Source of the DNA: Candidatus Staskawiczbacteria bacterium
Lineage (GTDB): Bacteria > Patescibacteriota > Minisyncoccia > Minisyncoccales > Staskawiczbacteraceae
Assembly: GCA_041659225.1 (NCBI GenBank)
Contig: JBAZYR010000005.1
Coordinates: forward strand, 4,824-68,823
Direction of reading: 5' to 3'
DNA length: 64,000 nt
The position numbers and the translations under genes are program-made. Under the pieces are notes generated by a model. It saw only the letters and a program-made list of their open reading frames with translations. It had not been told where the DNA came from and did not search any database. Position 1 is the stretch's first letter. Every line of letters begins with the position of its first letter. This document shows, piece by piece, positions 7,655 to 55,296 of the stretch.

Positions 7655-7726
7655 AGCAGCAGAATCAGCAAACTGTCTTTTAATCGAGGCAGTTTTTTGG
7701 TAGAGTACAGTAATCAATTAAAAAAT

Positions 7727-11309: not shown

Positions 11310-11335
11310 TAAATTTAGTAAAATCGACATATATT

Positions 11336-12742
11336 ATGAAAATTACTTTCTTCGGTGCAGCGCAAAACGTAACCGGCTCAAAACACCTGATTCAGTCACA
11401 GGGGTACAGTCTTCTTTTGGATTGCGGTCTCTACCAAGGCAAAAGAAAAGTTTCGAATGAACTAAATAAAAACCTTCCTTTTGAAAGCAGCACCATAAAT
11501 GCGGTCATACTTTCGCATGCGCACCTGGACCATTGCGGTACGTTGCCGATTTTAATCAAGAACGGATTTGAAAGAAAAATCTATTGCACCGGGGCCACTG
11601 CAGGAATTGCAAAATATATTATGGAGGATTGCGCCCAGCTTCAGGAGAACGATGCGATATATGTTAACAAACACCTAAAAAAGCGCGATGAACCGATTTC
11701 TCCTATTTACACCAAAGAGGATGTGGCAGAGACTATCAGTCACTTTGAGGAGGTTCCGTATTTTAACTTAAGCAATCAATGGACCCAGTTAAACGAAAAT
11801 ATCCGCTTCAAATTTTACGAAGCAGGACACGTTTTAGGTTCAGCAATAACATTATTGGAGATAAAAGAAGACGGAATCACAAAAACATTAGCTTTCTCGG
11901 GAGATCTGGGACGGGAATACCTGCCTATCTTGCGTCCGCCGGAGGAGATTAAGGAAGACATGCAAACATTGATACTCGAATGTACCTATGGAGCCAGGCT
12001 CCATAGGCCGATGGCGGATTTAACGGGAAATCTCGGCGAGATTATAGCAGAAGCGATTAATAAAAAGAGCAAGGTGATTATTCCGGCTTTTTCGCTGGAG
12101 CGTACGCAAGAGCTTGTGTATATTCTTCATAAACTTATAGACGAAAAAACAATTGCGTCCATTCCAATATATATTGATAGCCCTTTGGCAGATAAAATTA
12201 CCCAGGTTTTTAAGGAGAACACTGAATATTTCGATGAAGAATTCTGGAAAGACTTCGGAAGCCGAAACGAGTCGCCATTTGACGCCAAAAACATAATCTA
12301 TACGCGTTCTACCGAGGAATCAAAGGAATTAAATAACGTGCCTGGTCCCTTTATCGTAATCGCCGGCTCGGGTATGGCCGAGGGAGGAAGAGTTCTACAC
12401 CATTTGAAAAACAACATTTCTAACCCAAACAACATTGTTTTAATAACCGGCTATCAAGCTGAGAATACGCTTGGCCGGAGGATCCAGGATGGGATTACGC
12501 CAATTAAGATTTTTGGAGAAAAGTATAAAGTTAAGGCGAAGGTAATTACACTGGAGGAATTAAGCGCCCATGCTGATCAAAAAGATCTTTCAAACTACAT
12601 TAATAGAATAAAAGGGCTTAAAAAACTGTTCTTAGTGCACACCGAATTGCCTCAAGCCCAGGTTTTCCGGGGTTTGGTTAGCCAGTTTCATCCGTCTTTA
12701 TTGGTTAATATTCCTACGCTTGGTCAGGCATTTGAAATTTAA
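11336..12742 (+). CDS. MBL-fold beta-CASP RNA-metabolising hydrolase
   Basis: HAHLDHCG metallo-beta-lactamase motif. Beta-CASP-like C-terminal half (ELSAHADQKDL). Confidence 0.8.
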   Translation: MKITFFGAAQNVTGSKHLIQSQGYSLLLDCGLYQGKRKVSNELNKNLPFESSTINAVILSHAHLDHCGTLPILIKNGFERKIYCTGATAGIAKYIMEDCAQLQENDAIYVNKHLKKRDEPISPIYTKEDVAETISHFEEVPYFNLSNQWTQLNENIRFKFYEAGHVLGSAITLLEIKEDGITKTLAFSGDLGREYLPILRPPEEIKEDMQTLILECTYGARLHRPMADLTGNLGEIIAEAINKKSKVIIPAFSLERTQELVYILHKLIDEKTIASIPIYIDSPLADKITQVFKENTEYFDEEFWKDFGSRNESPFDAKNIIYTRSTEESKELNNVPGPFIVIAGSGMAEGGRVLHHLKNNISNPNNIVLITGYQAENTLGRRIQDGITPIKIFGEKYKVKAKVITLEELSAHADQKDLSNYINRIKGLKKLFLVHTELPQAQVFRGLVSQFHPSLLVNIPTLGQAFEI

Positions 12743-12803: not shown

Positions 12804-14180
12804 ATGAATAAATACACATTAGGCCTCATATCTGCTGTTTTAGTTTTTTCCTACGCATCTGTCGCGTACGCAATGACGCCAGTTCTATCCCTTTCGAATT
12901 CGGGAAATGGCGACATGGTCCAAGTCACCGTGACCGGGGATTCTAACTCCAGCGTTATTCTTTACTATCCTAAAACTGGTTATGGCACTCAAACCAGCTT
13001 TATCGGCACGACCAATTCAGGGGGGTATTTGACAACTACAATCAGCACCAGCTCCTTAGGCATTACCGCCGGCAGTTCCGTTCATGTAGTGGTTAACAAC
13101 CAGACTTCTTATGCTGTTGTATGGCCATATGCTACCGGGTTAAACACAATTTATTTCTCGCCGACTAATCCGACTGTTAACGTCGGGCAGAGCACAACTG
13201 TATATGTTTCTGGGGGCCAAGGCAGTTATTACGTATCAACTAATTCCAATTCCAATATTGTTCAGACTAGTTTGTCGGGCAGTACCTTGACTTTGTCCGG
13301 AATAATGAATGGCACATCGGTGATTACTGTTTGCTCTTCGGTCAATGCTTGCGGCTCTCTGACAGTCACAGTCGGCTACAGCGGAGGGAATTTATCGTTG
13401 AGCCAAACTAACATTTCATTGACGACCGGCCAGAGTGCCAGTGTTTCCATATACGGCACCGGCAACTACTATTTTTCTGGCAACATTAACCCAAGCGTTG
13501 CTACCGTTTCAATAAGCGGAAGCAGTTTAGTAATTTATGGTGTTAACTACGGCAGCACCAGTTTTTCTGTATGCCAAACCGGGGGGCAGTGCGTCACAGC
13601 CTATGTTACAGTGACGAATAATATAGTTACGCCGCGAACATCTTTTTTAACTTTTAGCCCGGCTAACCCAACTTTGCCGCTTGGGCAGAGCACTACTGTT
13701 TCAATTTCCGGCGATTATCCGATATATATACTTAATAACAACTATCCTTATAACTACGGTGTATATACCATTGCATACAATTCTAATTCCAGTGCTGTTC
13801 AGGCGTATATTAGCGGAAATTCTTTGGTTCTCACCGGGTCACAGCAGGGAGCTGCCGTGATTGTTGTGTGCAGCTCTTCTAGCGTTTGCGGACCAATCTC
13901 CGTTAAAGTGGGTGTCTACAACATCTACGACGATTATTCAGGATATCAATTCACAAGATTCCTGACTCTCGGTTCAACGGGGGATGACGTTATCGCCCTT
14001 CAGGAGTTATTGACCCAAGAAGGTTACTATAGCGGCAATATTAGCGGGCGCTATGGCAGTTTAACCAGGGCTGCTGTGTTGGCCTACCAAACTGCCAACG
14101 GATTGCCGCAGACCGGTAATGTTGGGGTATCGACTCGAGATTTCCTCAACAATAACGGAGGGGTAGGTTACGGTGAATAA
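12804..14180 (+). CDS. secreted repeat protein (three Ig-like repeats) with C-terminal peptidoglycan-binding domain
   Basis: Signal peptide. Three repeats of about 75 aa (SPTNPTVNVGQSTTV.., SQTNISLTTGQSASV.., SPANPTLPLGQSTTV..), each with a Cys pair. C-terminal PG_binding_1-like GSTGDDVIALQELL...AVLAYQTANGLPQTGNVG. Confidence 0.6.
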   Translation: MNKYTLGLISAVLVFSYASVAYAMTPVLSLSNSGNGDMVQVTVTGDSNSSVILYYPKTGYGTQTSFIGTTNSGGYLTTTISTSSLGITAGSSVHVVVNNQTSYAVVWPYATGLNTIYFSPTNPTVNVGQSTTVYVSGGQGSYYVSTNSNSNIVQTSLSGSTLTLSGIMNGTSVITVCSSVNACGSLTVTVGYSGGNLSLSQTNISLTTGQSASVSIYGTGNYYFSGNINPSVATVSISGSSLVIYGVNYGSTSFSVCQTGGQCVTAYVTVTNNIVTPRTSFLTFSPANPTLPLGQSTTVSISGDYPIYILNNNYPYNYGVYTIAYNSNSSAVQAYISGNSLVLTGSQQGAAVIVVCSSSSVCGPISVKVGVYNIYDDYSGYQFTRFLTLGSTGDDVIALQELLTQEGYYSGNISGRYGSLTRAAVLAYQTANGLPQTGNVGVSTRDFLNNNGGVGYGE

Positions 14181-14182
14181 TA

Positions 14183-15190
14183 ATGGATTTAAAGCATTTC
14201 CAGGAAATATTTAATAACGAACCTTCTTATCGCTTGAAACAGGCCCAAAAGGGCCTTTTTCAGGATTTAATAAATAGCTGGAAGGAAGCAACGGTTTTTC
14301 CGTTAGATCTTAGAGAGAAGCTAGATAAAGAATGTCCGATTGCAATATCTGCCAAGAAGTTTACCGCGCAAGACCAAAAAACCGTAAAAGCTTTAATTAC
14401 GTTGGACGACGGATTGAAAATAGAGGCAGTTTTGATGAAGCATGCTGACCATCGGAACACTGTCTGTGTTTCTTCTCAGGTTGGTTGCGCTTTGAGCTGT
14501 TCTTTTTGCGCCACCGGAAAGCTAGGATTTAAAAGGAATCTCCAGGTGTGGGAGATAGTAGAACAGGTTTTATTTTTCGCCCGTTATTTAAAAAAGGCAG
14601 GGGAGCGAGTAACAAATATTGTTTTTATGGGAATGGGCGAGCCCTTTTTGAATTACGATAATGTTATTGGCGCGATAATGATATTAAATGCCAAGGATTG
14701 CTATAACCTAGGCGCCCGTCATTTTTCAATTTCAACAGTTGGTGTCGTCGAAGGTATTGAAAAGTTAAGCAAAGAGAAACTGCAGATTAATTTAGCGATT
14801 TCTTTGCATGCTCCCGACAACCAACTCCGGTCTAAACTAATGGGGATTAATAATAAATATCCTATTGAGGATGTTTTAAAATCTGTCAGTAGCTACGTTA
14901 AAAAAACTAAACGACGCGTAATGCTGGAATACATAATGATTAAAGGTGTGAATGATTCCGAAAAACACGCACACGCCCTCGCGAAGTTAGCGAGAAACCC
15001 GTTGTATTTTGTTAATCTTATCACATACAGCGAGACGGGTATGTTCAAACCTTCTGTTCCTGCGCAAATCAAAATGTTCAAGAAGATTCTTGAGCAGGAA
15101 CGTGTGGCTGTAACTCAAAGGTATCGTTTCGGTGAAAATATCAAAGGCGCCTGCGGCCAGTTAGCCCTAGACGATGAAATTGACAGTTAG
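14183..15190 (+). CDS. rlmN: 23S rRNA/tRNA (adenine-C2)-methyltransferase RlmN (radical SAM)
   Basis: YRLKQAQKGLF N-terminus, radical-SAM CALSCSFCATG, GMGEP, and the C-terminal GACGQL cysteine. Confidence 0.9.
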   Translation: MDLKHFQEIFNNEPSYRLKQAQKGLFQDLINSWKEATVFPLDLREKLDKECPIAISAKKFTAQDQKTVKALITLDDGLKIEAVLMKHADHRNTVCVSSQVGCALSCSFCATGKLGFKRNLQVWEIVEQVLFFARYLKKAGERVTNIVFMGMGEPFLNYDNVIGAIMILNAKDCYNLGARHFSISTVGVVEGIEKLSKEKLQINLAISLHAPDNQLRSKLMGINNKYPIEDVLKSVSSYVKKTKRRVMLEYIMIKGVNDSEKHAHALAKLARNPLYFVNLITYSETGMFKPSVPAQIKMFKKILEQERVAVTQRYRFGENIKGACGQLALDDEIDS

Positions 15191-15289
15191 TAGTTTCGTG
15201 ATAGCATATAGTTGATTGGGCGTATTCCTGATCAAGGAGTGCAGTTCATTTACAAAGGAACGACGGTGCGTCGAACAAGGAGGTTGCAG

Positions 15290-15604
15290 ATGATAAAGAT
15301 GTTTATTGTTGAGTATTCCAAAATTGCGAAATTTCTTCTATGGGTACTTTTTAGTCTGTTTATGGTCGCCGAAGTGATCGCTATTCTCCAGCTCGATGTT
15401 ACTCTTATCTGCCGAGTAACGGCCATTGAGATTGTAATCGTTTTATGCATTTATATAATCCGAATTATTGTTCCGGAGCAATGGGTTGCAGCGTATAACG
15501 CAAAGCGTTTCTTCCGCTTAGACGAGATAGCTCCAGAGGAGGAGTTGGGATCGCCCCGCAGCGTAACACTCGAAAAAGAAGGAGACTCTGATGATAATGA
15601 TTGA
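15290..15604 (+). CDS. small two-TM membrane protein with acidic tail (GC-rich cassette A)
   Basis: ATG at 15290 is preceded by AAGGAGG (15279-15285). Two hydrophobic segments, C-terminus EKEGDSDDND. The upstream TTG (15212) has no RBS. Confidence 0.4.
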   Translation: MIKMFIVEYSKIAKFLLWVLFSLFMVAEVIAILQLDVTLICRVTAIEIVIVLCIYIIRIIVPEQWVAAYNAKRFFRLDEIAPEEELGSPRSVTLEKEGDSDDND

Positions 15605-15827
15605 CGCGGCAAAGTATTCAGGAAGCGCAGCAACAAAAGTACAAATCTTTCTTGGTGAAGCGATCTGTCAAATAGCTAAGGAAATCTTCAGTCCACTGAA
15701 TCGTTACGGGGCCCAATGTGCCTTTGCGACTCATGAGCCGACAATCGACCAACTGGTTGATAACTACGTAAAGACCGGCGCTATGTGCAGATGCATCGAA
15801 CGATTTTCCCGACGGGTCCAGACATGA
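15591..15827 (+). CDS. small hypothetical protein, paralog 1 (cassette A)
   Basis: Start overlaps the upstream stop and is preceded by GAAGGAG. Shares IFS.LNRYG.QC....H.PT..QL.DNY..TG with the next ORF. Confidence 0.4.
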   Translation: MIMIDAAKYSGSAATKVQIFLGEAICQIAKEIFSPLNRYGAQCAFATHEPTIDQLVDNYVKTGAMCRCIERFSRRVQT

Positions 15828-15863
15828 TTCGAATGGCCCGCTCTCGGTCCGAAAGGGGGTCGC

Positions 15864-16109
15864 ATGTTGACTCTTCACGTAATCCTTGAGATTGGTACAC
15901 AAAGCGTTGTAGCGGACGTGGAAATCTGTACCGGATCAATTAACGAAATACTCAATGATATCTTCAGCGGCCTGAATCGCTACGGCACGCAGTGTTACTA
16001 CGGGGTTCACGATCCCACATTTAACCAACTATTCGACAATTATCAGCGTACCGGCGGACTACAGAGACGCATTTCTTCGCTACCAAGAGCGAAAGCTCGC
16101 TGTCGATAG
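15864..16109 (+). CDS. small hypothetical protein, paralog 2 (cassette A)
   Basis: Preceded by AAGGGGG. Clear paralog of 15591-15827 (DIFSGLNRYGTQCYYGVHDPTFNQLFDNYQRTGG). Confidence 0.4.
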   Translation: MLTLHVILEIGTQSVVADVEICTGSINEILNDIFSGLNRYGTQCYYGVHDPTFNQLFDNYQRTGGLQRRISSLPRAKARCR

Positions 16110-16183
16110 ATTATGCATTCGTAATGCCCCACGGCCAAGCCAAGGGGTTTTTGTTTGGATACGAAACGTGATAGGATATATTA

Positions 16184-16870
16184 ATGAAAAAAGAAATTAT
16201 TGTTATATCTCTTGGCGGCTCGATTATTATCCCGAAAACAGGTTTTGACGTAAGATTTTTGAAGTCCTTCAAGGAATTAATATTAAAATTAACAAAAAAA
16301 GGCTATAAGTTTATTATCGTCTGCGGGGGCGGCCAAACTGCACGCTCGTATCAAAAAATAGCGCGAGAATTGAGTAATTTAACCCCGGCTGGAATTGATT
16401 GGATAGGAATATATGCGACTTGGCTTAACGCCAGCCTATTAAGGGGACTATTTAAAGAACGGGCGCATCTGGATATAGTGAATGACCCGACTAAGAAAAC
16501 GACCTGGAAAAAGCCTATTCTTATTGCCGGCGGATGGAAACCGGGGTTTTCGACAGATTACGACGCGGTAAAATTAGCTGAACTATACGGCGTAAGAAAA
16601 GTTATTAACTTGTCGAATATTGCATATGTCTTTGACAAAAACCCCTTAGATTTTAAGGACGCAAAAAAGATTAAGCAGACTGATTGGGCTAGTTTCCGTA
16701 AAATCGTGGGGGAGAAATGGTCTCCCGGGGCTAATCTGCCGTTTGATCCAGTCGCTAGTAAAATTGCTCAAAAACTTAAGCTAATTTTGTATTTTGTTAA
16801 AGGAACTGATTTGGTGGAGGTTGAAAAATCCATAACAGGAGAAAAATTTGACGGAACAATCATTGCCTAG
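16184..16870 (+). CDS. pyrH: UMP kinase, archaeal-type (amino-acid kinase fold)
   Basis: IISLGGSII N-terminus, VCGGGQTAR, and a length of 228 aa typical of the short UMP kinase type. Confidence 0.65.
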   Translation: MKKEIIVISLGGSIIIPKTGFDVRFLKSFKELILKLTKKGYKFIIVCGGGQTARSYQKIARELSNLTPAGIDWIGIYATWLNASLLRGLFKERAHLDIVNDPTKKTTWKKPILIAGGWKPGFSTDYDAVKLAELYGVRKVINLSNIAYVFDKNPLDFKDAKKIKQTDWASFRKIVGEKWSPGANLPFDPVASKIAQKLKLILYFVKGTDLVEVEKSITGEKFDGTIIA

Positions 16871-16929
16871 TTACCTTGACGGTGTTTTTTGGTGTATAAT
16901 CAGTTAATAAGTAATTAGTCCGTAAATTT

Positions 16930-17541
16930 ATGAATAAAATACTTTCAATCGTGTTGGTCGTGTCAGTTTTAGCAAGCACCGGCGTTGTTTATGCTCAAAC
17001 CAGCGGCACGACTGCGGCGGGAATGACCCCGGACAGCTCTTTCTATTTTTTAAAAACGTGGAAGGAGTCGATACAAACGTTTTTTACCTTCGGAGCGGAG
17101 AACAAAGCTAAGCAGTTTATGCATTTAGCTGATGTTCGGCTGGCTGAATATGAGAAAATGCTCGAAAAAGGGAAAGCGACAATTGCTCAAAGAGTTTTAG
17201 ACAAATATAATGCCCAATTGAATCGAGCAGTGACGAAGATAGAGGAAATAAAAGCAAAAGGGAACTATAGCGAGGACCTTTTAAGTAAAATTGAGGAAAT
17301 AAAAGCAAAGGGCGACTACATCATCGGCGGGAAAAAGAAAAAGGAAAATGGCTGTACAAATTCTGGAGGCACCATAGTATCTGGATTCTGCTGCGCATCC
17401 GCTACTGATTTTCCAAGCAGCTGCGCTATCGGCGCCTGCGGCTGCTCGCTGGAGAATAGTCACGAGGTCAAAACCTGCGATTGTGGGCAAGACCGATGCT
17501 TTGACGGAGAAAAATGCGTTTCGTTTCAACAAGGAGGTTAA
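16930..17541 (+). CDS. secreted DUF5667-like protein with Cys-rich C-terminus
   Basis: Signal peptide. TPDSSFYFLKTWKESIQ..AENKAKQFMHLADVRLAE pattern. In-frame direct repeat EEIKAKG(N/D)Y. Ten Cys in the last 60 aa. Confidence 0.55.
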   Translation: MNKILSIVLVVSVLASTGVVYAQTSGTTAAGMTPDSSFYFLKTWKESIQTFFTFGAENKAKQFMHLADVRLAEYEKMLEKGKATIAQRVLDKYNAQLNRAVTKIEEIKAKGNYSEDLLSKIEEIKAKGDYIIGGKKKKENGCTNSGGTIVSGFCCASATDFPSSCAIGACGCSLENSHEVKTCDCGQDRCFDGEKCVSFQQGG

Positions 17542-17560
17542 TTAATAATTAAGAAAATTT

Positions 17561-17932
17561 ATGGAAGAAAATACGCCAAATCAGACAACCGGCGGCCAAA
17601 CACCACCCGAACCGAAAAAAGAACAGCCGGCAGTTGCAAAAAAGGTTAATGTAATGGCAATTTTAGCGTACGTTATCTTTTTTATACCCTTGCTAACTGA
17701 TTCTAAAAATGATCCGTTTGTTAAATACCACGTTCGACAAGGGGCATTGGTATTTTTCATATTCATCGTTTCCTGGATACTCGGGTTTATACCCGGGCCT
17801 GGGTGGGGCCTTTCGCAGGTGATTTCCTTCTGCGGATTGATTTTAATGATTATTGGAATTGTGAATGTTTCGCAAGGAAAAGAGGTTCCGTTGCCCTTAA
17901 TCGGAAAATACGCCGACAAGATTGATATATAA
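17561..17932 (+). CDS. DUF4870-like membrane protein
   Basis: ILAYVIFFIPLLTDSKNDPFVKYHVRQGALVF followed by two further TM segments. Confidence 0.5.
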   Translation: MEENTPNQTTGGQTPPEPKKEQPAVAKKVNVMAILAYVIFFIPLLTDSKNDPFVKYHVRQGALVFFIFIVSWILGFIPGPGWGLSQVISFCGLILMIIGIVNVSQGKEVPLPLIGKYADKIDI

Positions 17933-17999
17933 TAAGTTATTTAAAAAATCGCCCTTTTGTTTCTGCAGCTGCAGAGCTTAGGGCTATTTTTTAGCAATA

Positions 18000-20915
18000 A
18001 TGGCCCTAGACCTGACAAAACTAAATGAAGAGCAAAAGAAAGCTGTAGCCCATAAAAATGGGCCTCTTTTGATTGTGGCTGGAGCAGGAACGGGAAAAAC
18101 TACCGTAATAACGCAAAGGATTGCATATTTGATCGAAAAAGGTGAGGCAACGCCTGAGGAAATACTGGCGGTTACTTTTACAGATAAAGCAGCGGGTGAA
18201 TTGGAAGAGCGTGTTGATAGCCTCCTGCCTTATGGATACGTTGACTTATGGGTTTCAACTTTTCATGCGTTTTGCGAAAGGATTTTAAGGGACCACGCCT
18301 TAGATATCGGCCTGCCTGCCGACTTTAAGGTTTTGAACCAAACCGCCAGTTGGCTGCTAATGCGGCAGAATATTGATAAGCTGGAGCTTGATTATTACCG
18401 TCCGCTAGGAAATCCGACAAAGTTTTTGCAAGCATTAATTTCGCATTTCTCGCATTGCAAGGATCAGGCGATCTATCCGAAAGACTATTTAGAATATGCC
18501 GATAAACTTAAAACCCGAGACGATTCGCCCGAGGAAGAAGAGGTTGAAAGGATTAAAGAAATCGCCAATGCTTATCATGTGTATCAAAAATTACTGCTGG
18601 AAAACAGTTCCTTGGATTTCGGAGATTTGATAAACTATTGTCTGAAGCTTTTCCAGGAGAGGCCTTTGATTCTTAAAAAGTATCGGGCGAAGTTTAAACA
18701 TATTCTAGTTGACGAGTTCCAGGATACGAATTGGGCCCAATATGAACTGATTAAAATTCTGGCTGAACCGAAGAATAATGTTACTGTTTGTGCGGATGAC
18801 GACCAGGCGATCTACAGGTGGCGGGGGGCATCTTTTTCGAACATTATTCAGTTCAAAAAGGACTTTGCCGACGCAAAACAGATATCATTAGTTAAGAATT
18901 ATAGGTCAAGCCAGAATATATTGGACCTGGCGTACAAATTTATCAAAGCCAACGATCCGGATCGGCTTGAATACGTGAATAAAATTGACAAAAAGTTGGT
19001 ATCCGAGCTCGGAGGAGACGGGATAATCGAACACATACGTGCCAATTCCTTAGACCAGGAGGTTTCCCAAATAGTTAAGAAGATAAAAGAGATTTTTAAA
19101 AAAGATAAAAATGCGAACTTTAGCGACTTCGCAATATTGGTCCGGGCCAATGATGCTGCCATCCCGTTTATCAAGGCGTTAGAAAGAGAACAAATTCCTT
19201 ATCAGTTTTTAGCTTCCCGCGGGCTTTATTCCAAGCCCTGTATTCTGGATATCGTTTCATATTTTAAACTTTTGGACAACTATCACGAAAGCTCCGCGGT
19301 TTACCGGATTTTGAATCTGCCGTTTTTGAATATTTCCTATGACGATATCGCAAAACTTACGCAGTACAGCCACAAAAGAACAATTTCGCTCTATGAAGCA
19401 ATCGGAGAACTTTCCTTAGTCCCGGGAATTTCCGCAAAAGCCCAAGATAAAATATCTTTTATCATCAGCCTGATAAAGAAACATAGCCTCATGGCCAGGG
19501 AAAAATCAGTGATTGAACTGTTAGCTGCGTTTTTACAGGATTCCGGTTATCTGAAGTATCTAACTGATAAAGAAGATGAAGAACAGATCAGTTTGCTCAA
19601 CCAATTCTACAAGCGCGTTAAATCCTTTGAAGAAAGCACGATAGAACCGACCTTGAGAAACTTTGTCGAGGAAATAATTTTGGAGATTGAATCTGGCGAA
19701 CAGGGAAAGCTCGAGTTTGATCCCGAGCAAGGACCGGATATGGTAAAGGTAATGACAATCCACGGGGCAAAAGGTTTAGAATTTAAATATGTTTTCCTTG
19801 CGAATATGGTGGATAAAAGATTCCCGACAATCGCGCGCGGCGAATTAATCGATCTTCCGCCGGATTTACTAAAAGACATTAAGCCGACCGGCGACGTTCA
19901 CTTACAGGAAGAAAGACGGCTTTGTTATGTCGCTATGACCCGGGCGAAAAAAGAGCTGTATTTTTCTTCAGCTCAGGATTACGGAGGAATGCGGAAGAAA
20001 AAATTGTCCAGGTTTTTAATTGAAATGGGATATGAGGATGAAGCGGACGTGAGAATCCAAAAAACCAAAGGAGAATTATTCGAACCGAGAAGTATCCTGG
20101 AAAAAAGAGAAAGCAAAAAAGAAAATGAATATCTGCCAAAACACTTTTCCTTTTCCCAGCTCACGGCATTTGAAAAGTGTCCTTTGCAGTATAAGTTTAA
20201 TTTTATTCTAAAAGTACCTATAAGAGGAAAATCTGTTTTTTCTTTTGGAAAAACAATCCATGCGACGCTATATGAATTTTTGAAACAAGCTGTTGAGGGC
20301 GAGAAAATTAAACAGGAAGATCTCTTCGGTTTTAAAGAAAAAGGATCCGGCGCTCTGGGATTAGATTTGCTAAAAGAGCTCTATGAAAAAAACTGGATCG
20401 GGGAGTGGTATGATAACAAAAGCCAGAAAGATGAATATTATGCGCTCGGGCTTAGAATTATTAAGGATTTCTATAACGAGTTTAAAAAGAATCCGCCGAA
20501 GATTTTAACAGTCAACAACACAATTGCCCTTGAAATCCCATTTAATCTGAAAATAGGGGATCAGACGGTTTATGGAATTATTGACCGAATCGATCAAACC
20601 GAGAAAGGAATTACAATTTTAGATTACAAGACCGGAAATGCAAAAGAAAGGCTTGACGCGAGTGATAAGGAGCAGTTGTTGATTTACCAAATCGCAGTTG
20701 AAGAGGTATTCAAATTAGAACCTACGGAGCTTACGTATTACTATTTAGACAAAGGAACAAAGATGTCGTTTCTTGGCGGAGATAAAGAGAAGGAAAAACT
20801 TAAGGAAAAGATACTGCGCCAGATGGACGAGATAAAAACAAGTGATTTTAAGCCAACTCCGGGCTGGCAATGCGCATTTTGCGATTTTAAAGATATATGC
20901 GATTTTAAACAATAA
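18000..20915 (+). CDS. UvrD/PcrA-type SF1 helicase fused to a C-terminal PD-(D/E)XK (Cas4-like) nuclease
   Basis: AGAGTGKT, ILVDEFQDTN, VMTIHGAKGLEF, YVAMTRAK. C-terminal nuclease part with FEKCPLQYKF, ILDYKTG and CAFCDFKDIC. Confidence 0.85.
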   Translation: MALDLTKLNEEQKKAVAHKNGPLLIVAGAGTGKTTVITQRIAYLIEKGEATPEEILAVTFTDKAAGELEERVDSLLPYGYVDLWVSTFHAFCERILRDHALDIGLPADFKVLNQTASWLLMRQNIDKLELDYYRPLGNPTKFLQALISHFSHCKDQAIYPKDYLEYADKLKTRDDSPEEEEVERIKEIANAYHVYQKLLLENSSLDFGDLINYCLKLFQERPLILKKYRAKFKHILVDEFQDTNWAQYELIKILAEPKNNVTVCADDDQAIYRWRGASFSNIIQFKKDFADAKQISLVKNYRSSQNILDLAYKFIKANDPDRLEYVNKIDKKLVSELGGDGIIEHIRANSLDQEVSQIVKKIKEIFKKDKNANFSDFAILVRANDAAIPFIKALEREQIPYQFLASRGLYSKPCILDIVSYFKLLDNYHESSAVYRILNLPFLNISYDDIAKLTQYSHKRTISLYEAIGELSLVPGISAKAQDKISFIISLIKKHSLMAREKSVIELLAAFLQDSGYLKYLTDKEDEEQISLLNQFYKRVKSFEESTIEPTLRNFVEEIILEIESGEQGKLEFDPEQGPDMVKVMTIHGAKGLEFKYVFLANMVDKRFPTIARGELIDLPPDLLKDIKPTGDVHLQEERRLCYVAMTRAKKELYFSSAQDYGGMRKKKLSRFLIEMGYEDEADVRIQKTKGELFEPRSILEKRESKKENEYLPKHFSFSQLTAFEKCPLQYKFNFILKVPIRGKSVFSFGKTIHATLYEFLKQAVEGEKIKQEDLFGFKEKGSGALGLDLLKELYEKNWIGEWYDNKSQKDEYYALGLRIIKDFYNEFKKNPPKILTVNNTIALEIPFNLKIGDQTVYGIIDRIDQTEKGITILDYKTGNAKERLDASDKEQLLIYQIAVEEVFKLEPTELTYYYLDKGTKMSFLGGDKEKEKLKEKILRQMDEIKTSDFKPTPGWQCAFCDFKDICDFKQ

Positions 20916-21067
20916 ATTATTTACGGAAAGTCATATTTATAAGATTGAAATATAATGGCGCTGGCCTACGTATTAAATGTGTATACTTGTGGTATACGCC
21001 AAAGGTCTCGCGAATAATGAGGCCTTTTGGGCTCTACTGTTAAATATTAATTCCTTTTATTGTCTGC

Positions 21068-21652
21068 ATGCAACCAGATGATTTCAATATAATGAATATG
21101 GACGATAAGGAATTAGTCGCCCTGTCCTTGAAAGAGAAGGAAAGATATGGATACCTGATGCAAAGATATGAGAAGAAATTATTAAAATATATTACAAGGT
21201 TTTCGGGCGTTGGCGGAGACGACGCTCAAGATATTCTGCAGGATACTTTTTTAAAGGTATATAGAAATTTGAATGCTTACAACGGCGCATTTAGTTTTTC
21301 CTCCTGGATTTACCGGATTGCCCATAACGAAACAATCGGCCATCTGCGAAAGCTAAAATCGCGGCCTCAGGTTGTCAATTCAGAGGATAGCAATATATTA
21401 ATTGATATTTTTAAAAGCGATCCCGGGTTTTTCGCTGATATTGAAAATCAACACCTTGCTGAAAAACTTGGAGAGATTATTAATACTTTAGATAGTAAAT
21501 ATCGAGAGGTTATTGCTTTGGTATATCTCGAGGACAAGAGCTATAAAGAGGTATCGGATATACTAAAAAAGCCCGTGAGCACGGTTGGGACGTTAGTTCT
21601 ACGGGCGAAGAGGCAATTAAAGGAAAAGATTAAAAAAAGCAATTATTTTTAA
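21068..21652 (+). CDS. ECF-type RNA polymerase sigma-70 family factor
   Basis: Region 2 (DAQDILQDTFLKVYRNL..FSSWIYRIAHNE) and region 4 HTH (SYKEVSDILKKPVSTVGTLVLRAKRQL). Confidence 0.85.
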   Translation: MQPDDFNIMNMDDKELVALSLKEKERYGYLMQRYEKKLLKYITRFSGVGGDDAQDILQDTFLKVYRNLNAYNGAFSFSSWIYRIAHNETIGHLRKLKSRPQVVNSEDSNILIDIFKSDPGFFADIENQHLAEKLGEIINTLDSKYREVIALVYLEDKSYKEVSDILKKPVSTVGTLVLRAKRQLKEKIKKSNYF

Positions 21653-21656
21653 ACAC

Positions 21657-22364
21657 ATGTCGGAAATATCTGAAAAAGTAATACAAGATATCGAAGAGAA
21701 AAAGATTCACCCTCGCCCGAGGTGGTACTTCCTGATGGGAAGATACAGCACTTTTTCCTTGTTTGTTTTCTCCATCGTTTTCGGTGCTCTTTCAGTTGCC
21801 ACGATTTTATTCATGTTGTTTGATTACGATCGGGATATTTCCCAATACTTTGGCAGGGGATTATTTAAGGATATTTTAATATCAATTCCATATCTATGGA
21901 TTGTCCTTTTTGTATTTTTTATTCTAAGCGCCGACTATAATCTTAGGAGAACCCCGAGGGGCTATCGGTTTGAGTTGCATAAAATTATTCTTCTTAATCT
22001 TTTTCTCTCAATTTTAGTTGGAACTGGCCTTTTCTGTTTTGGGTTCGATTCTGAAATTGACGACCTAGTTTCGCGAAATGTACCGTTTTACGAAAATCTT
22101 ATCTATAACAAAGACGATATCTGGGTTTTCCCTGAAAAAGGTCTTTTGAGCGGTGAAGTGATCCAGATAATTGGGCCTGGCAGTTTTACATTGAGAGATT
22201 TCCATGGTTATGTTTGGCGCGTGAACGAAGAAGGACTTGACCCTTCTGATTTTCGATACATTCACGAAGGCGCCAAATTAAAACTTATTGGGGAGCAAAC
22301 GGGCGAAGGAATATTTGATGTTAAAATTATCTGTTCCTGGCAAGAGTGTTGCGGGGTTCGATAG
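21657..22364 (+). CDS. multi-pass membrane protein, possible cognate anti-sigma factor
   Basis: Lies 4 nt after the sigma gene. Has a short cytoplasmic N-terminus, then 3-4 TM segments and an extracytoplasmic C-terminal domain. No recognisable motif. Confidence 0.35.
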   Translation: MSEISEKVIQDIEEKKIHPRPRWYFLMGRYSTFSLFVFSIVFGALSVATILFMLFDYDRDISQYFGRGLFKDILISIPYLWIVLFVFFILSADYNLRRTPRGYRFELHKIILLNLFLSILVGTGLFCFGFDSEIDDLVSRNVPFYENLIYNKDDIWVFPEKGLLSGEVIQIIGPGSFTLRDFHGYVWRVNEEGLDPSDFRYIHEGAKLKLIGEQTGEGIFDVKIICSWQECCGVR

Positions 22365-22617
22365 CATGGTGAAATAATAGGGGAGATGACTACGTAGTAA
22401 TAAGTGAAAGGTCGAAGTCAGCATTCGCTTATTAACATAATCATCATTAAAATAGATGGCTAAATGGCTCACCAGATGCATTGCTCTCAAAGTATTCTAT
22501 TAACATGTCCTTCCTATTAAGACTAGAGGAAACGCGACTCCTGTCGCAAATGAACGGATACATGCGACAGCAACTATTCTAGGAGCAAATAAATAATAAA
22601 AATCGAACATATACAAA

Positions 22618-22648
22618 CTAACCCGCAACTGGGTTAGTTGTTTTATTT
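22618..22648 (+). terminator. hairpin plus T-rich tail at the end of an ORF-free 250-nt stretch
   Basis: CTAACCC-gcaact-GGGTTAG followed by ttgttttattt. The reverse strand also reads as hairpin plus T-rich sequence. Confidence 0.5.
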
Positions 22649-22664
22649 ACGGAGTGGATGCGCT

Positions 22665-22693
22665 CTTGACTTTTCACTAGTTGTGCTATACAA
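22665..22693 (+). promoter_or_regulatory. sigma-70-type promoter of the RRM protein gene
   Basis: TTGACT, 17-nt spacer, TACAAT. Leaves a leader of about 115 nt with two perfect 8-bp hairpins (CTTACATA/TATGTAAG and GTAAGCCG/CGGCTTAC). Confidence 0.5.
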
Positions 22694-22814
22694 TGATTAT
22701 TGTAAGTTTCTATTGAGTTCTCATTCCTTACATATTTTATTATTCTATGTAAGCCGTAAGAGAAGTTAGATAGTCGGTCGGCTTACTAATTAATAAAATA
22801 ATATAAGGAAAAAT

Positions 22815-23147
22815 ATGGCAAAGAAATTATTTGTCGGTGGATTATCATATAATACTACCGATGCTACTTTGAAAGATACTTTTTCTCAGGCTGGAACCGT
22901 TGAGTCCGCGACTATAATCATGGACAAAATGACCGGCCGCTCAAAAGGATTTGGATTTGTTGAAATGTCTACTGAGGAAGAAGCTCAGAAAGCCACTGAA
23001 ATGTTCAATGGCAAAGACATCGACGGAAGAAACGTCACTGTCAACGAAGCAAAACCTTTGGAAGCTAGACCTCCAAGAACTGGGGGAGGCTTCAACCGAG
23101 GAGGCGGAAGCCGAGGATTCGGTGGAGACAGAGGAAGTCGCTGGTAG
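22815..23147 (+). CDS. RRM-type RNA-binding protein with Gly/Arg-rich tail
   Basis: RNP-2 LFVGGL, RNP-1 KGFGFVEM, tail GGGFNRGGGSRGFGGDRGSRW. Confidence 0.85.
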   Translation: MAKKLFVGGLSYNTTDATLKDTFSQAGTVESATIIMDKMTGRSKGFGFVEMSTEEEAQKATEMFNGKDIDGRNVTVNEAKPLEARPPRTGGGFNRGGGSRGFGGDRGSRW

Positions 23148-23158
23148 AAAGTAATGAG

Positions 23159-23182
23159 AAAATCCCTTAACAGGGATTTTTT
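23159..23182 (+). terminator. intrinsic terminator
   Basis: AATCCCT-taac-AGGGATT followed by a T-run. Confidence 0.7.
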
Positions 23183-23226
23183 CATGTATGCGTGGTATAA
23201 TAAAGGATATTAATAATGTTAAATAT

Positions 23227-23442
23227 ATGAGCATATTAAACAAAATACTCTTTACTATACTTTTACTACTTTTCGCGGTTGCGTTTTTCCTATACAAACA
23301 GTATGTGTTTTCCTTCTTAACGTTGGTCGTCATTCTTGTCTTCTCCAAATGGGATCAAATGAAGAAGCTGATTGCTGGAAACGGACGCATTGAGATGCAG
23401 TTGCAGAACAAGAAGGAGGAAGAGAACAAAGAGGTAAAGTAG
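23227..23442 (+). CDS. small membrane protein
   Basis: The listed ATG at 23188 lies upstream of an extended -10 (TGGTATAAT, 23193-23201), so the ATG at 23227 is preferred. Two hydrophobic segments and a charged tail. Confidence 0.35.
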   Translation: MSILNKILFTILLLLFAVAFFLYKQYVFSFLTLVVILVFSKWDQMKKLIAGNGRIEMQLQNKKEEENKEVK

Positions 23443-23457
23443 CTAACTATCAGTTCA

Positions 23458-23486
23458 CCCCGTAACGTTGTTACGGGGTTTTGTTT
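23458..23486 (+). terminator. intrinsic terminator
   Basis: CCCCGTAA-cgttg-TTACGGGG followed by ttttgttt. Confidence 0.7.
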
Positions 23487-23490
23487 GCCC

Positions 23491-23519
23491 TTGACGTGCT
23501 TTTGATAGTATGATATAAT
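23491..23519 (+). promoter_or_regulatory. sigma-70 consensus-like promoter of the secretin cassette
   Basis: TTGACG, 17-nt spacer, TATAAT. Confidence 0.55.
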
Positions 23520-23579
23520 ATATTTGTTGACTTCGCGTGGAGTCACGATAGTGTGTTCGTTGACATAGGAGTCTGTAAG

Positions 23580-24989
23580 ATGAAGCGAGGATGTTTTTAC
23601 TACGTATCGGCCTTCATTGTTGCTTTCGCCATCGTCGGTTCGGCGATGGCTCAGCAATCGACAAGCGCCCCTGCGGGCGCCGTGGCCAGCGATGGCAAAG
23701 TCGTTATCGCCGGTCAGCCGGGTGATTACAACATCATCTCGAGTGACGGTCAGTTAACGATGCAGAGTTACGAAGTAACCGGGGTGTCTGTGGAAAGTAA
23801 GAGCACGCTGTACAAAGCGTTCCATAAGCTCCTGTCGAAAGACGGGCGTGGCGGGAGTGCCGAGGTGGCGCCGCTCACTCGGAACGGTAAGGAAATCATT
23901 CTTCTCATCGTAGCCGCGACACCCGAGATGCAACGTTCAATCGCGAAAACCGTTGAGCGGATCAACTCGGGAACCGTCGGCGCTTTCTGCTACACCCCAA
24001 AAAATGTGGTGTTCATTCCGAAGTATCGGTCGGCCGAGTCAATCGCTGCGGCTTTACGCGTGGAGATAACCAACATTGGTGTTCTCTACGTTGACCCGAT
24101 TCTGAACGCGATAACGATCGAGGATGACGCCACCTACGTGGACTGGCTGGTCAATTACGCACAAGAGTTTGACTCGCCACCTCCGCAGATTACGGCCATA
24201 CTGCGTCTTGTCGCCATTGACAAGAACAATGACAGCAGTGTCGGAACGGATTGGGGTGCTCTGCTTGATGGACTTCCACCGTCGATTTCGCTAAGTATCG
24301 GCGGTGAACGTCAGATCTTATCGCGCTCGGGCGAAGTAAGCGTCGCCAACGGTGATCCGAGCCTTGCCCTGACAGGTTCGAAGCAAAGGCTTTCGCACCT
24401 GCCCATAACGAGTTTTTCTGCGGCGGTTAACGAGATTTCGCCGCAGGCGGTAGGAGCCTTCTTCAGTTATCTGGAAACAAAGGGCGTGTGTCGGATTCTC
24501 AACACCGCCGACATTAATGTGGTCAACGGCTCGCCGACGGTCGTAAGCACGGAAGTGAGTATGCCCGTCACCGCCACAGTCTCAAGCGAGACCGGCGGCA
24601 AGCTTCGCCAGGAAGTTTCGGTTTTAGAAGGTGTTAAGATTACGATCAGCGGAAGTTTGGCCACAATCGGCCATCGCCTGAATGTTCAGGCGAGCAGTAC
24701 ATCGGTGGTGAGTTATACTCGCACCGGCCTTCCGCTCATCGCGACGAGTACTCTTGACACCGCCGTCCAGCTGCCGCGCAACCGCACAATCACCTTATCG
24801 GGGTTGTCGCGGCAGAAGGAGGTCACGGTAACACACAAGCCTCCGGTACTCGGAGACTTGGATGTCTTGAACCTTTTCTCAAAAAAGGTCACCGAAACCA
24901 GGGAATGGAAACTGTATATTTGCATCACGGTGGTTGACCCGCCGGTTGCAACTCCAGCGACCACGAACCCTTCGGTTTCGGTCAATTGA
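23580..24989 (+). CDS. secretin family protein (GspD/PilQ/RcpA/pIV-like), orphan (GC-rich cassette B)
   Basis: ATG at 23580 has AGGAG 8 nt upstream. Signal peptide MKRGCFYYVSAFIVAFAIVGSAMAQQ. Secretin_N-like block (YRSAESIAAALRVE..LYVDPILNAITIEDD). C-terminal secretin blocks (RILNTADINVVNGSPTVV; GVKITISGSL; TITLSGL; PPVLGDLDVLNLFSKK..WKLYICITV). Confidence 0.7.
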   Translation: MKRGCFYYVSAFIVAFAIVGSAMAQQSTSAPAGAVASDGKVVIAGQPGDYNIISSDGQLTMQSYEVTGVSVESKSTLYKAFHKLLSKDGRGGSAEVAPLTRNGKEIILLIVAATPEMQRSIAKTVERINSGTVGAFCYTPKNVVFIPKYRSAESIAAALRVEITNIGVLYVDPILNAITIEDDATYVDWLVNYAQEFDSPPPQITAILRLVAIDKNNDSSVGTDWGALLDGLPPSISLSIGGERQILSRSGEVSVANGDPSLALTGSKQRLSHLPITSFSAAVNEISPQAVGAFFSYLETKGVCRILNTADINVVNGSPTVVSTEVSMPVTATVSSETGGKLRQEVSVLEGVKITISGSLATIGHRLNVQASSTSVVSYTRTGLPLIATSTLDTAVQLPRNRTITLSGLSRQKEVTVTHKPPVLGDLDVLNLFSKKVTETREWKLYICITVVDPPVATPATTNPSVSVN

Positions 24990-25014
24990 CCGTTTCCTCG
25001 AACACAAACAACCA

Positions 25015-25051
25015 AGCCCGGTGGCTATCATGCTATCGGGCTCTTTCTTTT
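25015..25051 (+). terminator. intrinsic terminator of the secretin cassette
   Basis: AGCCCG, 16-nt loop, CGGGCT, then ctttctttt. Confidence 0.55.
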
Positions 25052-25089
25052 GACGTAAACAGATTTCTGGTGTATAATAAGGTTTTGTT

Positions 25090-26916
25090 ATGAATAAAAT
25101 ACGAAACATCGCAATAATCGCCCACGTTGACCACGGAAAAACCACTTTGGTGGACGCTCTTTTGCGTCAGTCAAAAACCGCAATGAGCAAAGACCGGGCA
25201 AATCAGGACTGTATTATGGACAGTAACGAGATAGAAAGAGAGCGGGGGATTACCATTTTTTCTAAAAACGCATCCGTTTACTATAACGATACTAAGATAA
25301 ATATAATCGATACTCCGGGCCATGCAGATTTTGGCGGAGAAGTTGAACGGGTTTTGAATATGGCTGACGGCTGTCTGCTTTTGGTTGACGCAAAAGAAGG
25401 ACCAATGCCCCAAACAAGATTTGTTTTGAAAAAGGCGTTGGAAATGGGTCACAAGATTATTGTTGTGATTAATAAAATTGATAAGGATGGAGCCCGTCCC
25501 GAATATGCCTTAGAAGCAACAATGGAACTATTTTTAGAATTAGGCGGGCATGATCAAACATTGAGTTTTCCGGTGATTTACGCGTCCGGAAGAGAGGGAA
25601 AAGCTGGTAAAGTGGCAAATATTAGCAAAATGGAGGATATTTTGCCGATATTCGAAGAAATTATCCAGCACATACCTTCGCCGATAGGAGATTCAAAAAA
25701 GCCTTTGCAAATTTTAGTTACTTCCATAGCTGGAGACGACTTTAAAGGAAGAATTGCTATCGGCAGAGTTTACAACGGAGTTGTAAAAGCTAATCAGGAG
25801 GTGATGCATATAAACAGAGCGGGGGAGCAGACAAAGTGCAAATTAGTTTCTCTTATGACTTTTGCCGGACTTGGTAAAATTGAAAGCGCTGAAGTTTCGG
25901 CCGGTGACATTGTTGCCATCGCCGGGATACCCGATGTAACGATTGGGGAAACAATAACTGATCCGTTGGATCCGCAAGCTTTACCTTTGATTAATATTGA
26001 AGAGCCAACCGTAAAAATGACCTTCATGGTTAACGATTCTCCTTTTGCCGGCAAGGAGGGGGAATACCCAACCTCCAGGCAGATACGGGAAAGGTTACAC
26101 AAAGAATTGGAAACCGATGTTGCTTTAAGGGTTGACGATACGGATGACGGAAAATGGATTGTGTCAGGGAGAGGGGAATTGCACCTTGCCATTCTAATCG
26201 AAAGAATGCGCCGGGAAGGTTATGAGTTCCAGGTCTCCAGGCCTCAAGTGATTACGCGTGAAATTAACGGCAAGCAAATGACGCCTTTTGAAAAGGTCTT
26301 TATTGAAGTCCCTGAGAAATATCATGGGACGGTGATACAGAAATTGGGAGCCAGAAAAGGTGAAATGATTGAGATGAGAAACGTGGATAGTACAGTATTT
26401 TTAGAATTTGTGATTCCTACGAGAGGGCTTTTGGGATACAGAAGCGAATTTCTAACTGACGCAAAGGGTTTAGGAATAATGAATACAGCTTTTTATCAAT
26501 ATCAAACAGATCCTGGAAATTGGAAAGAAAGAGCCCAAGGATCTTTGATTTCTCACGAAACTGGGCCTACTAATCTTTACGGTTTGAGAAACGTGCAGGA
26601 TAGGGGAGTATTATTTTTCGGCCCAGCGGTGTTGGTTTACGAAGGCCAGGTTGTGGGTCAGAATTCACGTCCTAATGATATCCGAGTAAATGTTTGCAAG
26701 GAAAAACAGCTGTCGAATATGAGGTCAAAAGGAGAAGGGGTATCTGTACATTTTAACACTCCAAAGACCATGGGGCTGGAGGACGCTTTGGAATATATTG
26801 GAGACGATGAATTAGTTGAAGTTACGCCGAAGAATGTACGAATAAGAAAAGTATACTTAGACGATAATGATCAGAGAAGGGCTGATAGAAAGGAGAGATC
26901 GGGAAACGCCGGATAA
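25090..26916 (+). CDS. typA: translational GTPase TypA/BipA
   Basis: [36 protein letters not shown], and full-length EF-G-like architecture with the BipA C-terminus. Confidence 0.95.
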
Positions 26917-37504: not shown

Positions 37505-37542
37505 GTCGCGGAATCGCGACCGAAAGATAAGGAGAAGAGATT

Positions 37543-39210: not shown

Positions 39211-39278
39211 GCTGAGTTGGGGAGGCGAGGAGACAATCTTCTCGCCTCCCTCTCTCGGTATAAAGAAGGAGAGATGGC

Positions 39279-54796: not shown

Positions 54797-54834
54797 ACTT
54801 AAAAATTGTAGAATAACAAATATTTAGAAAACAT

Positions 54835-55287: not shown

Positions 55288-55296
55288 CCTCGAATC

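Follow-up and report, generated by a model that had tools for sequence, protein, structure and literature searches.

Why would a bacterium from a group reported to have no outer membrane carry a gene for a secretin? The question is raised by a 64,000-nucleotide stretch of a Candidatus Staskawiczbacteria genome (contig JBAZYR010000005.1; hereafter the window, meaning this whole stretch), in which a lone GC-rich gene ahead of typA encodes a secretin-like protein. Secretins are commonly regarded as indicating a diderm envelope. Bacteria of the Candidate Phyla Radiation (CPR; Patescibacteria), to which the genome belongs, have been reported to be without PilQ and GspD, and this has been used as evidence of a monoderm envelope (PMC6744442, PMC4508563, PMC7143001, PMC9166423); outer-membrane biogenesis genes have been reported missing from them (PMC6744442), and a survey of type IV filaments treated secretins as absent from monoderms (PMC6668835). 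In the literature that we searched for secretins of the CPR, Patescibacteria and Parcubacteria, PilQ and GspD included, no CPR secretin family is described. Our best explanation, to which we assign a probability of roughly 0.55, is that the gene belongs to a secretin subfamily of the CPR, reached its present site as a lateral cassette and may encode an accessory channel. That it is a secretin and that it was transferred laterally into the Staskawiczbacteria genome we hold, taken together, with high confidence.

The assignment to the secretins is carried by the C-terminal core of the protein. In a profile hidden Markov model (HMM) search, PF00263 (Secretin) matched residues 298–450 over model positions 2–164 of 169, scoring 50 bits (E = 3.2e-13; gathering cut-off 27.5), and PF03958 (Secretin_N) reached 25.5 bits over residues 144–203, just below its cut-off of 28.2. 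Among the 17 aligned members of the family described below, PF00263 was matched by all and Secretin_N by 10 at E ≤ 0.01 (best 4.5e-8); these sequences contained no further Pfam family, that is, no STN/N0, AMIN or T2SS-T3SS_pil_N. By a rule-based reading, the N terminus has the basic n-region, hydrophobic h-region and AxA site of a Sec-type signal peptide, a type conserved across the family. Towards the C terminus, PPVLGDLDVLNLFSKK aligns to KVPLLGDIPVIGNLFKTR of Neisseria PilQ, being one residue shorter and more polar. The preliminary description of the locus had named a secretin domain with an N-terminal module, a signal peptide and the C-terminal motif, and all of these were recovered, the N-terminal module at a sub-threshold score. 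The reading frame on the plus strand may start at GTG 23553 or ATG 23580 and ends at 24989, and the product from the ATG has the same length as the identical deposited protein (P0001).

Structure prediction gave a consistent picture. An AlphaFold2 model of the protein had a mean pLDDT (predicted local distance difference test) of 67, with 75–90 in the folded domains, and was laid out as a signal helix, a disordered linker, two beta-alpha-beta-beta-alpha domains (residues 60–130 and 140–197) and a long beta-rich core, with the protein ending about 17 residues past the barrel; the model is of a monomer, and the barrel itself is inferred. A helix at residues 428–433, between the last two strands, falls in the PPVLGDLDVLNLFSKK region. 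The first of the two small domains is specific to the family and carries its conserved motifs YEVTG, DGRGG and AT.xMQ.SI..T.E.IN.G. Searching the model against PDB with Foldseek returned secretins at all of ranks 1–37 (E from 1e-13 to 2e-6), and a profile of the family matched 22 secretin sequences in PDB, the best being GspD/ExeD 6i1x (7.7e-29), PilQ 4av2 (1.3e-24), RcpA (~2e-14), f1 pIV (4e-14) and InvG (1e-13). Judged from sequence and predicted fold, the product of 23580–24989 is a genuine and intact secretin, with a signal peptide, two ring-building N domains and a barrel.

The protein nevertheless stands outside every characterised secretin class tested. Its NCBIfam scores were 47.7 bits for PilQ (TIGR02515; cut-off 284.35), 27.9 for GspD (TIGR02517; 351.35), 37.3 for SctC (TIGR02516; 238.45) and 34.3 for MshL (TIGR02519; 250.2), and it has two N domains only, with no N0, AMIN or S domain. 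PilQ, the secretin of type IV pili (T4P; PDB 4av2, 9sh1 and 6w6m), gave the best single-sequence match in PDB (E = 9e-4, residues 163–450) and the best NCBIfam match, and it shares the succession of an N3 domain and the secretin barrel as well as an alignable C-terminal LGD..V..LF. PilQ is, however, 570–900 residues long against about 470 here, and differs in having AMIN and N0; the window gene also lies apart from pilMNOP and in a lineage reported to be without an outer membrane. GspD of type II secretion systems (T2SS), especially the pilotin-independent ExeD/EpsD (6i1x, 6i1y; PMC6532946), was the top match of the family profile (6i1x, 104 bits), with fold matches to 5wq8, 5zdh and 6i1y at E ~1e-12, and ExeD similarly lacks the pilotin-binding S domain. 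The window protein differs in having no GspC-binding N0-N1-N2 periplasmic stack and no gsp operon in the window, and ExeD still needs ExeAB and an outer membrane.

Two shorter classes resemble the protein in size and habit. Like pIV of f1/M13 (7ofh; phrog_1012), which is compact at about 400–430 residues, it combines a signal peptide, a short set of N domains and the core without an S domain; pIV is often encoded without a cellular secretion system, and matches were found to phrog_1012 (2.1e-9) and to the fold of 7ofh (TMt 0.59). Yet pIV has N0 and adjoining pI/pXI partner genes, neither of which is found in the window, and its family-profile score of 55 bits is below those of GspD (104) and PilQ (90). 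RcpA/CpaC, the secretin of Tad pili (8odn), is likewise short (about 420–460 residues) and horizontally spread, and matched the family profile at 2.2e-14; the match is confined to the C-terminal barrel, and the window protein differs in having no N domain of the T2SS-T3SS_pil_N/BON type, no tad genes and no TadD pilotin.

The closest labelled relatives are found among other CPR bacteria. With the window protein as the query, phmmer run exhaustively over 1.84 billion representative proteins gave 17 hits below 1e-30 and 32 below 1e-10, about 17–20 related clusters, followed by a gap to generic secretins at ~1e-10 to 1e-15 and at most 25% identity; it returned no closer homologue from any non-CPR genome that could be a donor. 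Labelled members of the family were all from the CPR: Staskawiczbacteria, Falkowbacteria (MBI5765838.1), Buchananbacteria (MBN1778683.1) and the "Patescibacteria group" metagenome-assembled genomes (MAGs) of MEA1929317.1 and MEK7586896.1; several other members came from 0.1-µm filtrates of Hainich groundwater. A motif scan for related loci, built on the six closest sequences, found 2 genomes among 185,579 GTDB species representatives, both of them Patescibacteria. We defined the subfamily by phmmer E < 1e-29 to the window protein, an N domain with the motifs G.PG.Y..., YEVTG, DG.GG and AT..MQ.SI, a length of 400–490 residues and a location among Patescibacteria housekeeping genes, and the window protein has each of these properties. 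Its members have diverged to 25–55% identity while keeping full length and 17 invariant columns. A neighbor-joining tree placed the window protein within this CPR-labelled group. We read the gene as a member of a small secretin subfamily that, where labelled, is found only in the CPR.

Composition and synteny both indicate that the gene is a recent arrival. The gene has a GC content of 0.549 against a window mean of 0.432, and GC at third codon positions (GC3) of the secretin gene is 0.634, compared with 0.440 ± 0.041 in 51 background genes of the window (z = +4.7), a value exceeded in the window only by that of the SPFH gene in a second GC-rich island. Amino-acid composition does not explain the high GC, because the excess is largest at third, synonymous codon positions. 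In a TypA-based scan of JGI metagenomes we recovered 80 related loci (TypA identity 69–82%), and none had a member of the secretin family within its flanks. An RRM gene lies directly upstream of typA in at least 10 of the 80, with a gap of 90–440 nt holding only a terminator and a TTGACA-17-TATAAT promoter; in the window the same interval holds an AT-rich gene for an 84-residue membrane protein (23188–23442) and the GC-rich secretin unit. The secretin gene is therefore a recent lateral insertion, a single-gene cassette of about 1.56 kb in the RRM–typA intergenic region, and the proposal of a recent import stood up. A search for an empty site with a lineage-specific 235-residue neighbor as the query gave no match in JGI metagenomes. 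In the related locus L029 the RRM–typA interval contains about 680 nt of unrelated inserted sequence (217–897), which includes a small open reading frame (ORF); taken with the 84-residue gene of the window, this suggests that small genes have landed in the interval repeatedly.

The cassette forms a transcription unit of its own, bounded upstream by the terminator of the 84-residue membrane-protein gene and downstream by the typA promoter (Table 1). Promoters and terminators were located by consensus scan, and the promoter, ribosome-binding site (RBS) and terminator that had been described for the GC-rich gene were all confirmed at their positions. The layout of the secretin promoter is that of the typA promoters in related genomes. 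The cassette is flanked by two copies of TTGACGT, which occurs only twice between 23001 and 25500; as both copies are −35 boxes, their identity may be coincidence, and we did not count the pair as a target-site duplication or att site. Stand-alone secretin genes, in the window (23520–23579) and in three other loci (L002, L010 and L006), have a 5′ leader of about 60–90 nt that opens with a short hairpin, in the window GACTtcgcgtggAGTC at 23529–23544.

An assembly chimera or contamination was ruled out by an independent assembly. The Logan assembly of SRR6484324 (L001, 10,371 bp) is collinear with 14773–25143 of the window, has one mismatch and spans both junctions of the secretin cassette. The identical protein is deposited at NCBI as MFA5878248.1 and MFA6387428.1, "hypothetical protein WC845_02690" of Candidatus Staskawiczbacteria bacterium, on a 785-kb contig, and is annotated by JGI as GspD/PulD.

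Family members occupy differing sites in different genomes. The 12 family loci lie at different housekeeping positions, at ftsA/ftsZ, tgt/uvrB, ruvB, uvrA and L28 beside the S12 ribosomal cluster (gene orders in Table 1). In nearly all of them GC3 of the secretin gene, at 0.56–0.70, exceeds that of the neighbors, at 0.28–0.50; an exception is the ftsA/ftsZ locus L002, where the host GC is about 0.5 and the secretin GC3 is at the level of ftsA and ftsZ. The excess over neighboring genes in most loci therefore suggests a reservoir in GC-richer CPR lineages or their mobile elements and repeated transfer into low-GC CPR genomes. The locus L006 is syntenic with 53612–56913 of the window (S41–L9–CTP synthase; 58–60% amino-acid identity) and has its secretin at a different site from that of the window, beside a LAGLIDADG gene. 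The free-standing LAGLIDADG genes of the two genomes (window 58964–59452 and L006 5137–5724, both on the minus strand) lie in syntenic regions and are 53% identical.

The preliminary description had treated the gene as an orphan, and the comparison of loci adds that it is not unique and that a sister branch of its subfamily has a conserved membrane-protein partner. In L009/L099, L012, L013 and L097/L098 the secretin gene is directly preceded by a gene for a multi-transmembrane protein of 300–430 residues. The four distinct partner sequences are mutually homologous, and all except that of L097 end in IDHVPW/L. The partner had no Pfam, PHROG or PADLOC match, a homology search returned only two query-like proteins, and its AlphaFold2 model was unusable (pLDDT 39); an HMM of the partner matched nothing in the window and nothing in the other loci whose secretins share a clade with the window protein. 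In the neighbor-joining tree, for which no branch support was computed, the window protein and P0002, P0003, P0004, P0006, P0007 and P0008 formed one orphan clade, with partner-linked members basal or paraphyletic, and because of this topology the partner-less state looks derived. The Buchananbacteria member (L096, 10001–11339) ends at 401 residues, and its remaining C-terminal segment lies in another frame (11151–11339); this copy is either frameshifted and decaying or the product of a sequencing error.

Table 1. Features of the secretin cassette and its surroundings in the window, and gene order in family loci (SEC, secretin gene; locus coordinates refer to the locus named)
Feature	Position	Strand	Remarks
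Terminator of the 84-residue membrane-protein gene	23457–23479	+	10-bp stem, 6 GC pairs, then TTTGTTTG
Secretin promoter, sigma-70 type	23491–23519	+	TTGACG-17-TATAAT; 11 of 12 consensus matches; TG before the −10 box
Direct repeat TTGACGT, left copy	23491–23497	+	7 nt; right copy 25050–25056; flanks the 1,559-bp cassette
RBS, AGGAG	23567–23571	+	8 nt ahead of ATG 23580; read from the sequence
Secretin coding sequence	23580–24989	+	469 residues plus stop; MFA5878248.1
Predicted Sec-type signal peptide	23580–23651	+	MKRGCFYYVSAFIVAFAIVGSAMA; cleavage after AMA (then QQ); no lipobox
Family-specific N-terminal domain	23742–23972	+	residues 55–131; predicted beta-alpha-beta-beta-alpha ring-building fold; no Pfam match; AlphaFold2 pLDDT 81–87, DSSP
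Secretin_N (N3-type) ring-building domain	24009–24188	+	residues 144–203; PF03958 sub-threshold; pLDDT 84–90
Secretin beta-barrel core	24186–24935	+	residues ~203–452; Pfam match at 24471–24929 (residues 298–450)
Degenerate secretin motif	24840–24887	+	PPVLGDLDVLNLFSKK, residues 421–436; compare (V/I)P.LGDIP.LG.LF
Terminator of the secretin gene	25015–25042	+	11-bp stem, 7 GC pairs, then CTTTCTTTTG (T-run)
typA promoter	25050–25078	+	TTGACG-17-TATAAT; downstream limit of the secretin unit; homologous to TTGACA-17-TATAAT of relatives
typA coding sequence	25090–26916	+	directly 3′ of the secretin unit
Partner gene, L009/L099	342–1241		
Partner gene, L012	4088–5272		
Partner gene, L013	8699–9985		
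Partner gene, L097	2609–3895		
L002			ftsA, 116, 176, SEC, 92, ftsZ
L008			tgt, SEC, uvrB
L012			ruvB, partner, SEC
L013			partner, SEC, LigT; L10 and L12 further downstream
L097			partner, SEC, uvrA
L099			partner, SEC; near gyrA
L014, L096			TrmB, SEC

Around the gene in the window we found none of the machinery with which secretins usually work. We searched about 55 ORFs of at least 120 residues with Pfam, a set that does not extend to small ORFs of pilin size, and found no T2SSE/PilB/PilT, PilC, PilMNO, GspC, pilotin or Zot/pI, in agreement with the earlier claim that the gene is partner-less, and no family of Tad, type III secretion, BamA, Lpt or Lpx. The scans showed housekeeping and envelope genes only, among them PIF1- and UvrD-type helicases, GH3, an ECF-type sigma factor, the RRM protein and TypA, between which the 84-residue membrane protein and the secretin lie, an F-type ATP synthase operon, FKBP, HrcA-GrpE-DnaK-DnaJ, GMP synthase, a serpin, GreA, the S41 peptidase, L9, CTP synthase and the LAGLIDADG endonuclease. 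One candidate for a hidden partner, at 12804–14180, gave a weak match to T2SS-T3SS_pil_N (28 bits); we rejected it, as its product, 458 residues long, secreted and made up largely of Ser/Thr/Gly-rich repeats, carries PG_binding_1 at its C terminus and is probably a surface protein anchored in the wall. The serpin, at 50597–51859, is a full-length one in a CPR genome (PF00079, 4e-119). The second GC-rich island, at 36974–39848 between the FKBP gene and hrcA-grpE-dnaK-dnaJ, has a GC of 0.50–0.59 and GC3 of 0.56–0.73 (z up to +6.9) and contains a weak NfeD-like gene, a 555-residue SPFH/Band-7 gene (PF01145, 5e-26) and a gene for a 189-residue protein; it is probably another lateral import. Pairs of NfeD and SPFH proteins are membrane-scaffold modules. 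PADLOC gave no defence-system hit for the secretin, the sister-branch partner, the proteins of a GC-rich island in L006 or those of the second island in the window.

How could such a protein work? Once exported by Sec, the protomers could assemble by themselves and form a gated, multimeric channel in any lipid bilayer within reach, in the manner of secretins that are independent of the beta-barrel assembly machinery (BAM) and of pilotins. Assembly would proceed without the classical docking parts: N0, AMIN and S domains are missing from the protein, and pilMNOP, gsp, tad and pI genes from its neighborhood. BAM is not needed for the insertion of PulD into lipid (PMC4604470), mislocalised secretins assemble in the cytoplasmic membrane (PMC5596341, PMC10329019), and secretins assemble even in the outer membrane of yeast mitochondria (PMC6946019); because of these precedents, partner-free assembly is plausible. 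The channel would then sit at the cell surface or in the zone of host contact. The membrane that holds it would be the outer one of a diderm host to which the symbiont is attached, or else belong to the envelope of the symbiont itself, and pili, DNA or macromolecules could pass through the channel. We favor an accessory role of this kind because CPR cells are reported to have no outer membrane, and we put it forward tentatively, by analogy with characterised secretins; expression, oligomerisation, membrane target and cargo are all inferred. Of the fates proposed in the preliminary description, repurposing is the one that stays a candidate.

A bolder form of the host-contact role, which we think doubtful, is that the channel acts in trans. 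The Sec-exported secretin, having neither pilotin nor inner-membrane dock, would insert itself from outside into the outer membrane of a diderm host and form a portal several nanometers wide for the symbiont's type IV pili, DNA-uptake machinery or scavenged macromolecules, and the multi-transmembrane partner of the sister branch might be an anchor or a self-protection factor. If true, this would be the first secretin working in the membrane of another cell and a route for ultra-small monoderm symbionts into Gram-negative hosts.

Several observations weigh against our preferred reading of an accessory channel in a subfamily labelled only from the CPR. The gene is rare, being absent from the 80 related typA loci and found by motif scan in only 2 of the 185,579 species representatives, and is therefore not a core part of CPR biology. 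Its GC3, still un-ameliorated, would fit just as well with a gene that arrived very recently and has not yet been selected. The more polar, degenerate C-terminal motif may impair membrane insertion, and the Buchananbacteria member is truncated or frameshifted. The partner of the sister branch suggests assembly in the cell's own envelope rather than in that of a host, genes for outer-membrane biogenesis or T4P may lie outside the 64-kb window, and an older report, cited in PMC4508563, claims that OD1 has an outer membrane.

Some of these observations would also be expected if the gene were a functionless passenger, a very recent import that is useless without an outer membrane and heading to decay. 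The GC3 offset (z = +4.7), the absence from 80 related loci, the degenerate PxLGDIPxLGxLF motif, the lack of partner genes among the window ORFs and the Buchananbacteria homologue cut at 401 residues all fit that account. Against it, the 469 codons are intact and served by a strong host-type promoter, RBS and terminator, and two deposited MAG proteins and an independent assembly show exactly this sequence. The family has, moreover, diverged to 25–55% identity with full length, 17 invariant columns and conserved motifs retained and with all labelled members from the CPR, a pattern difficult to account for unless selection has acted somewhere in the gene pool of the CPR, and the 1.84 billion representatives held no closer homologue in a non-CPR genome as a donor. 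We consider the passenger account unlikely, and the "non-functional" part of the original suggestion is accordingly not favored, although the import itself is.

A second alternative keeps the secretin at work in the cell that makes it, as the outer conduit of its own type IV pilus or T2SS-like pseudopilus through a surface (S-) layer or an unrecognised outer lipid layer, the PilQ/GspD equivalent being encoded away from the rest of the system. PilQ and GspD are the nearest characterised families, T4P genes are near-universal in the CPR (PMC6744442, PMC4508563), and the sister-branch partner could anchor the ring to the cytoplasmic membrane; the older report of an outer membrane in OD1 would also agree. 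A PilT-like T2SSE ATPase gene lies 0.8 kb from the secretin in L099, but it is on the opposite strand and within a housekeeping operon, and T4P genes adjoin the secretin in none of the 12 loci. Secretins are coupled to PilP/GspC and to peptidoglycan by N0 and AMIN domains, both of which are missing here, and the extremely patchy distribution of the secretin contrasts with the ubiquity of T4P in the CPR. Microscopy and gene content further describe CPR cells as having no outer membrane (PMC6744442, PMC7143001, PMC9166423). On balance we regard a conduit for the cell's own pilus as rather improbable.

A mobile-element origin finds part of its support at loci outside the window. The secretin gene is a GC-rich single-gene cassette found at different sites in different genomes, and it matches phrog_1012, the family of M13 pIV. 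In L006 it comes after an island of four GC-rich genes, which include a ParB-like (phrog_1033, 2.4e-7) and a CII-like one (phrog_101, 3e-4), and island and secretin share a 40-nt promoter/operator repeat; in L002 a 176-residue ORF upstream of the secretin (2238–2768) belongs to phrog_24725 (7e-33). The window itself is different: no integrase, transposase, Zot/pI ATPase, coat or replication gene adjoins the secretin, and apart from the 7-nt TTGACGT, itself a −35 box, there are no att-like repeats. The proposal of a filamentous-phage remnant found no support in the window; two homologous loci elsewhere have phage-like neighbors. Tblastn against 50,697 phage genomes (INPHARED) gave no match, two motif scans of IMG/VR with close and distant sub-alignments found no relative, a BFVD fold search returned generic viral secretins only (10–12% identity), the family profile prefers GspD and PilQ to f1 pIV, and it is not known why phages of monoderm hosts would require a secretin. 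That the gene is the cargo or remnant of a CPR mobile element or phage, a pIV-like export or egress pore or a moron whose other genes were lost, is in our view the least probable of the alternatives, and a filamentous-phage remnant, as first proposed, is disfavored by the missing pI/Zot, coat and integrase genes and the absence of a phage relative.

The two phage-like loci have features of their own. The direct repeat in L006 is perfect over its 40 nt (5692–5731 and 7637–7676) and contains the palindrome ATTGTGCGACAAT and, after it, TTGACA with a −10 box; it occurs once ahead of the island and once ahead of the secretin homologue, and a third operator-like copy is found 1 kb upstream (4671–4684). 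This arrangement suggests that the island and the secretin may be co-regulated by one repressor. The 176-residue ORF of L002, in a Hainich CPR MAG between ftsA and ftsZ, shares 57% identity with a hypothetical protein from Synechococcus phage S-SRM01 and 44% with Gp45 of Clostridium phage phi3626.

An intact, diversified and laterally moving secretin subfamily that is labelled only from the CPR contradicts the blanket statement that there is no secretin in the CPR, and it raises the question of which membrane hosts a secretin whose maker has no outer membrane. The small, self-contained protein, with neither pilotin nor N0, would be an easy target for expression and cryo-electron microscopy. 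If it is a pore directed at the host, it would explain how an episymbiont gains access to the periplasm of its Gram-negative host; if it is a conduit through the cell's own envelope, the picture of the CPR cell envelope would have to be revised; and if its function belongs to a mobile element, it would point to unknown phages or plasmids of the CPR.

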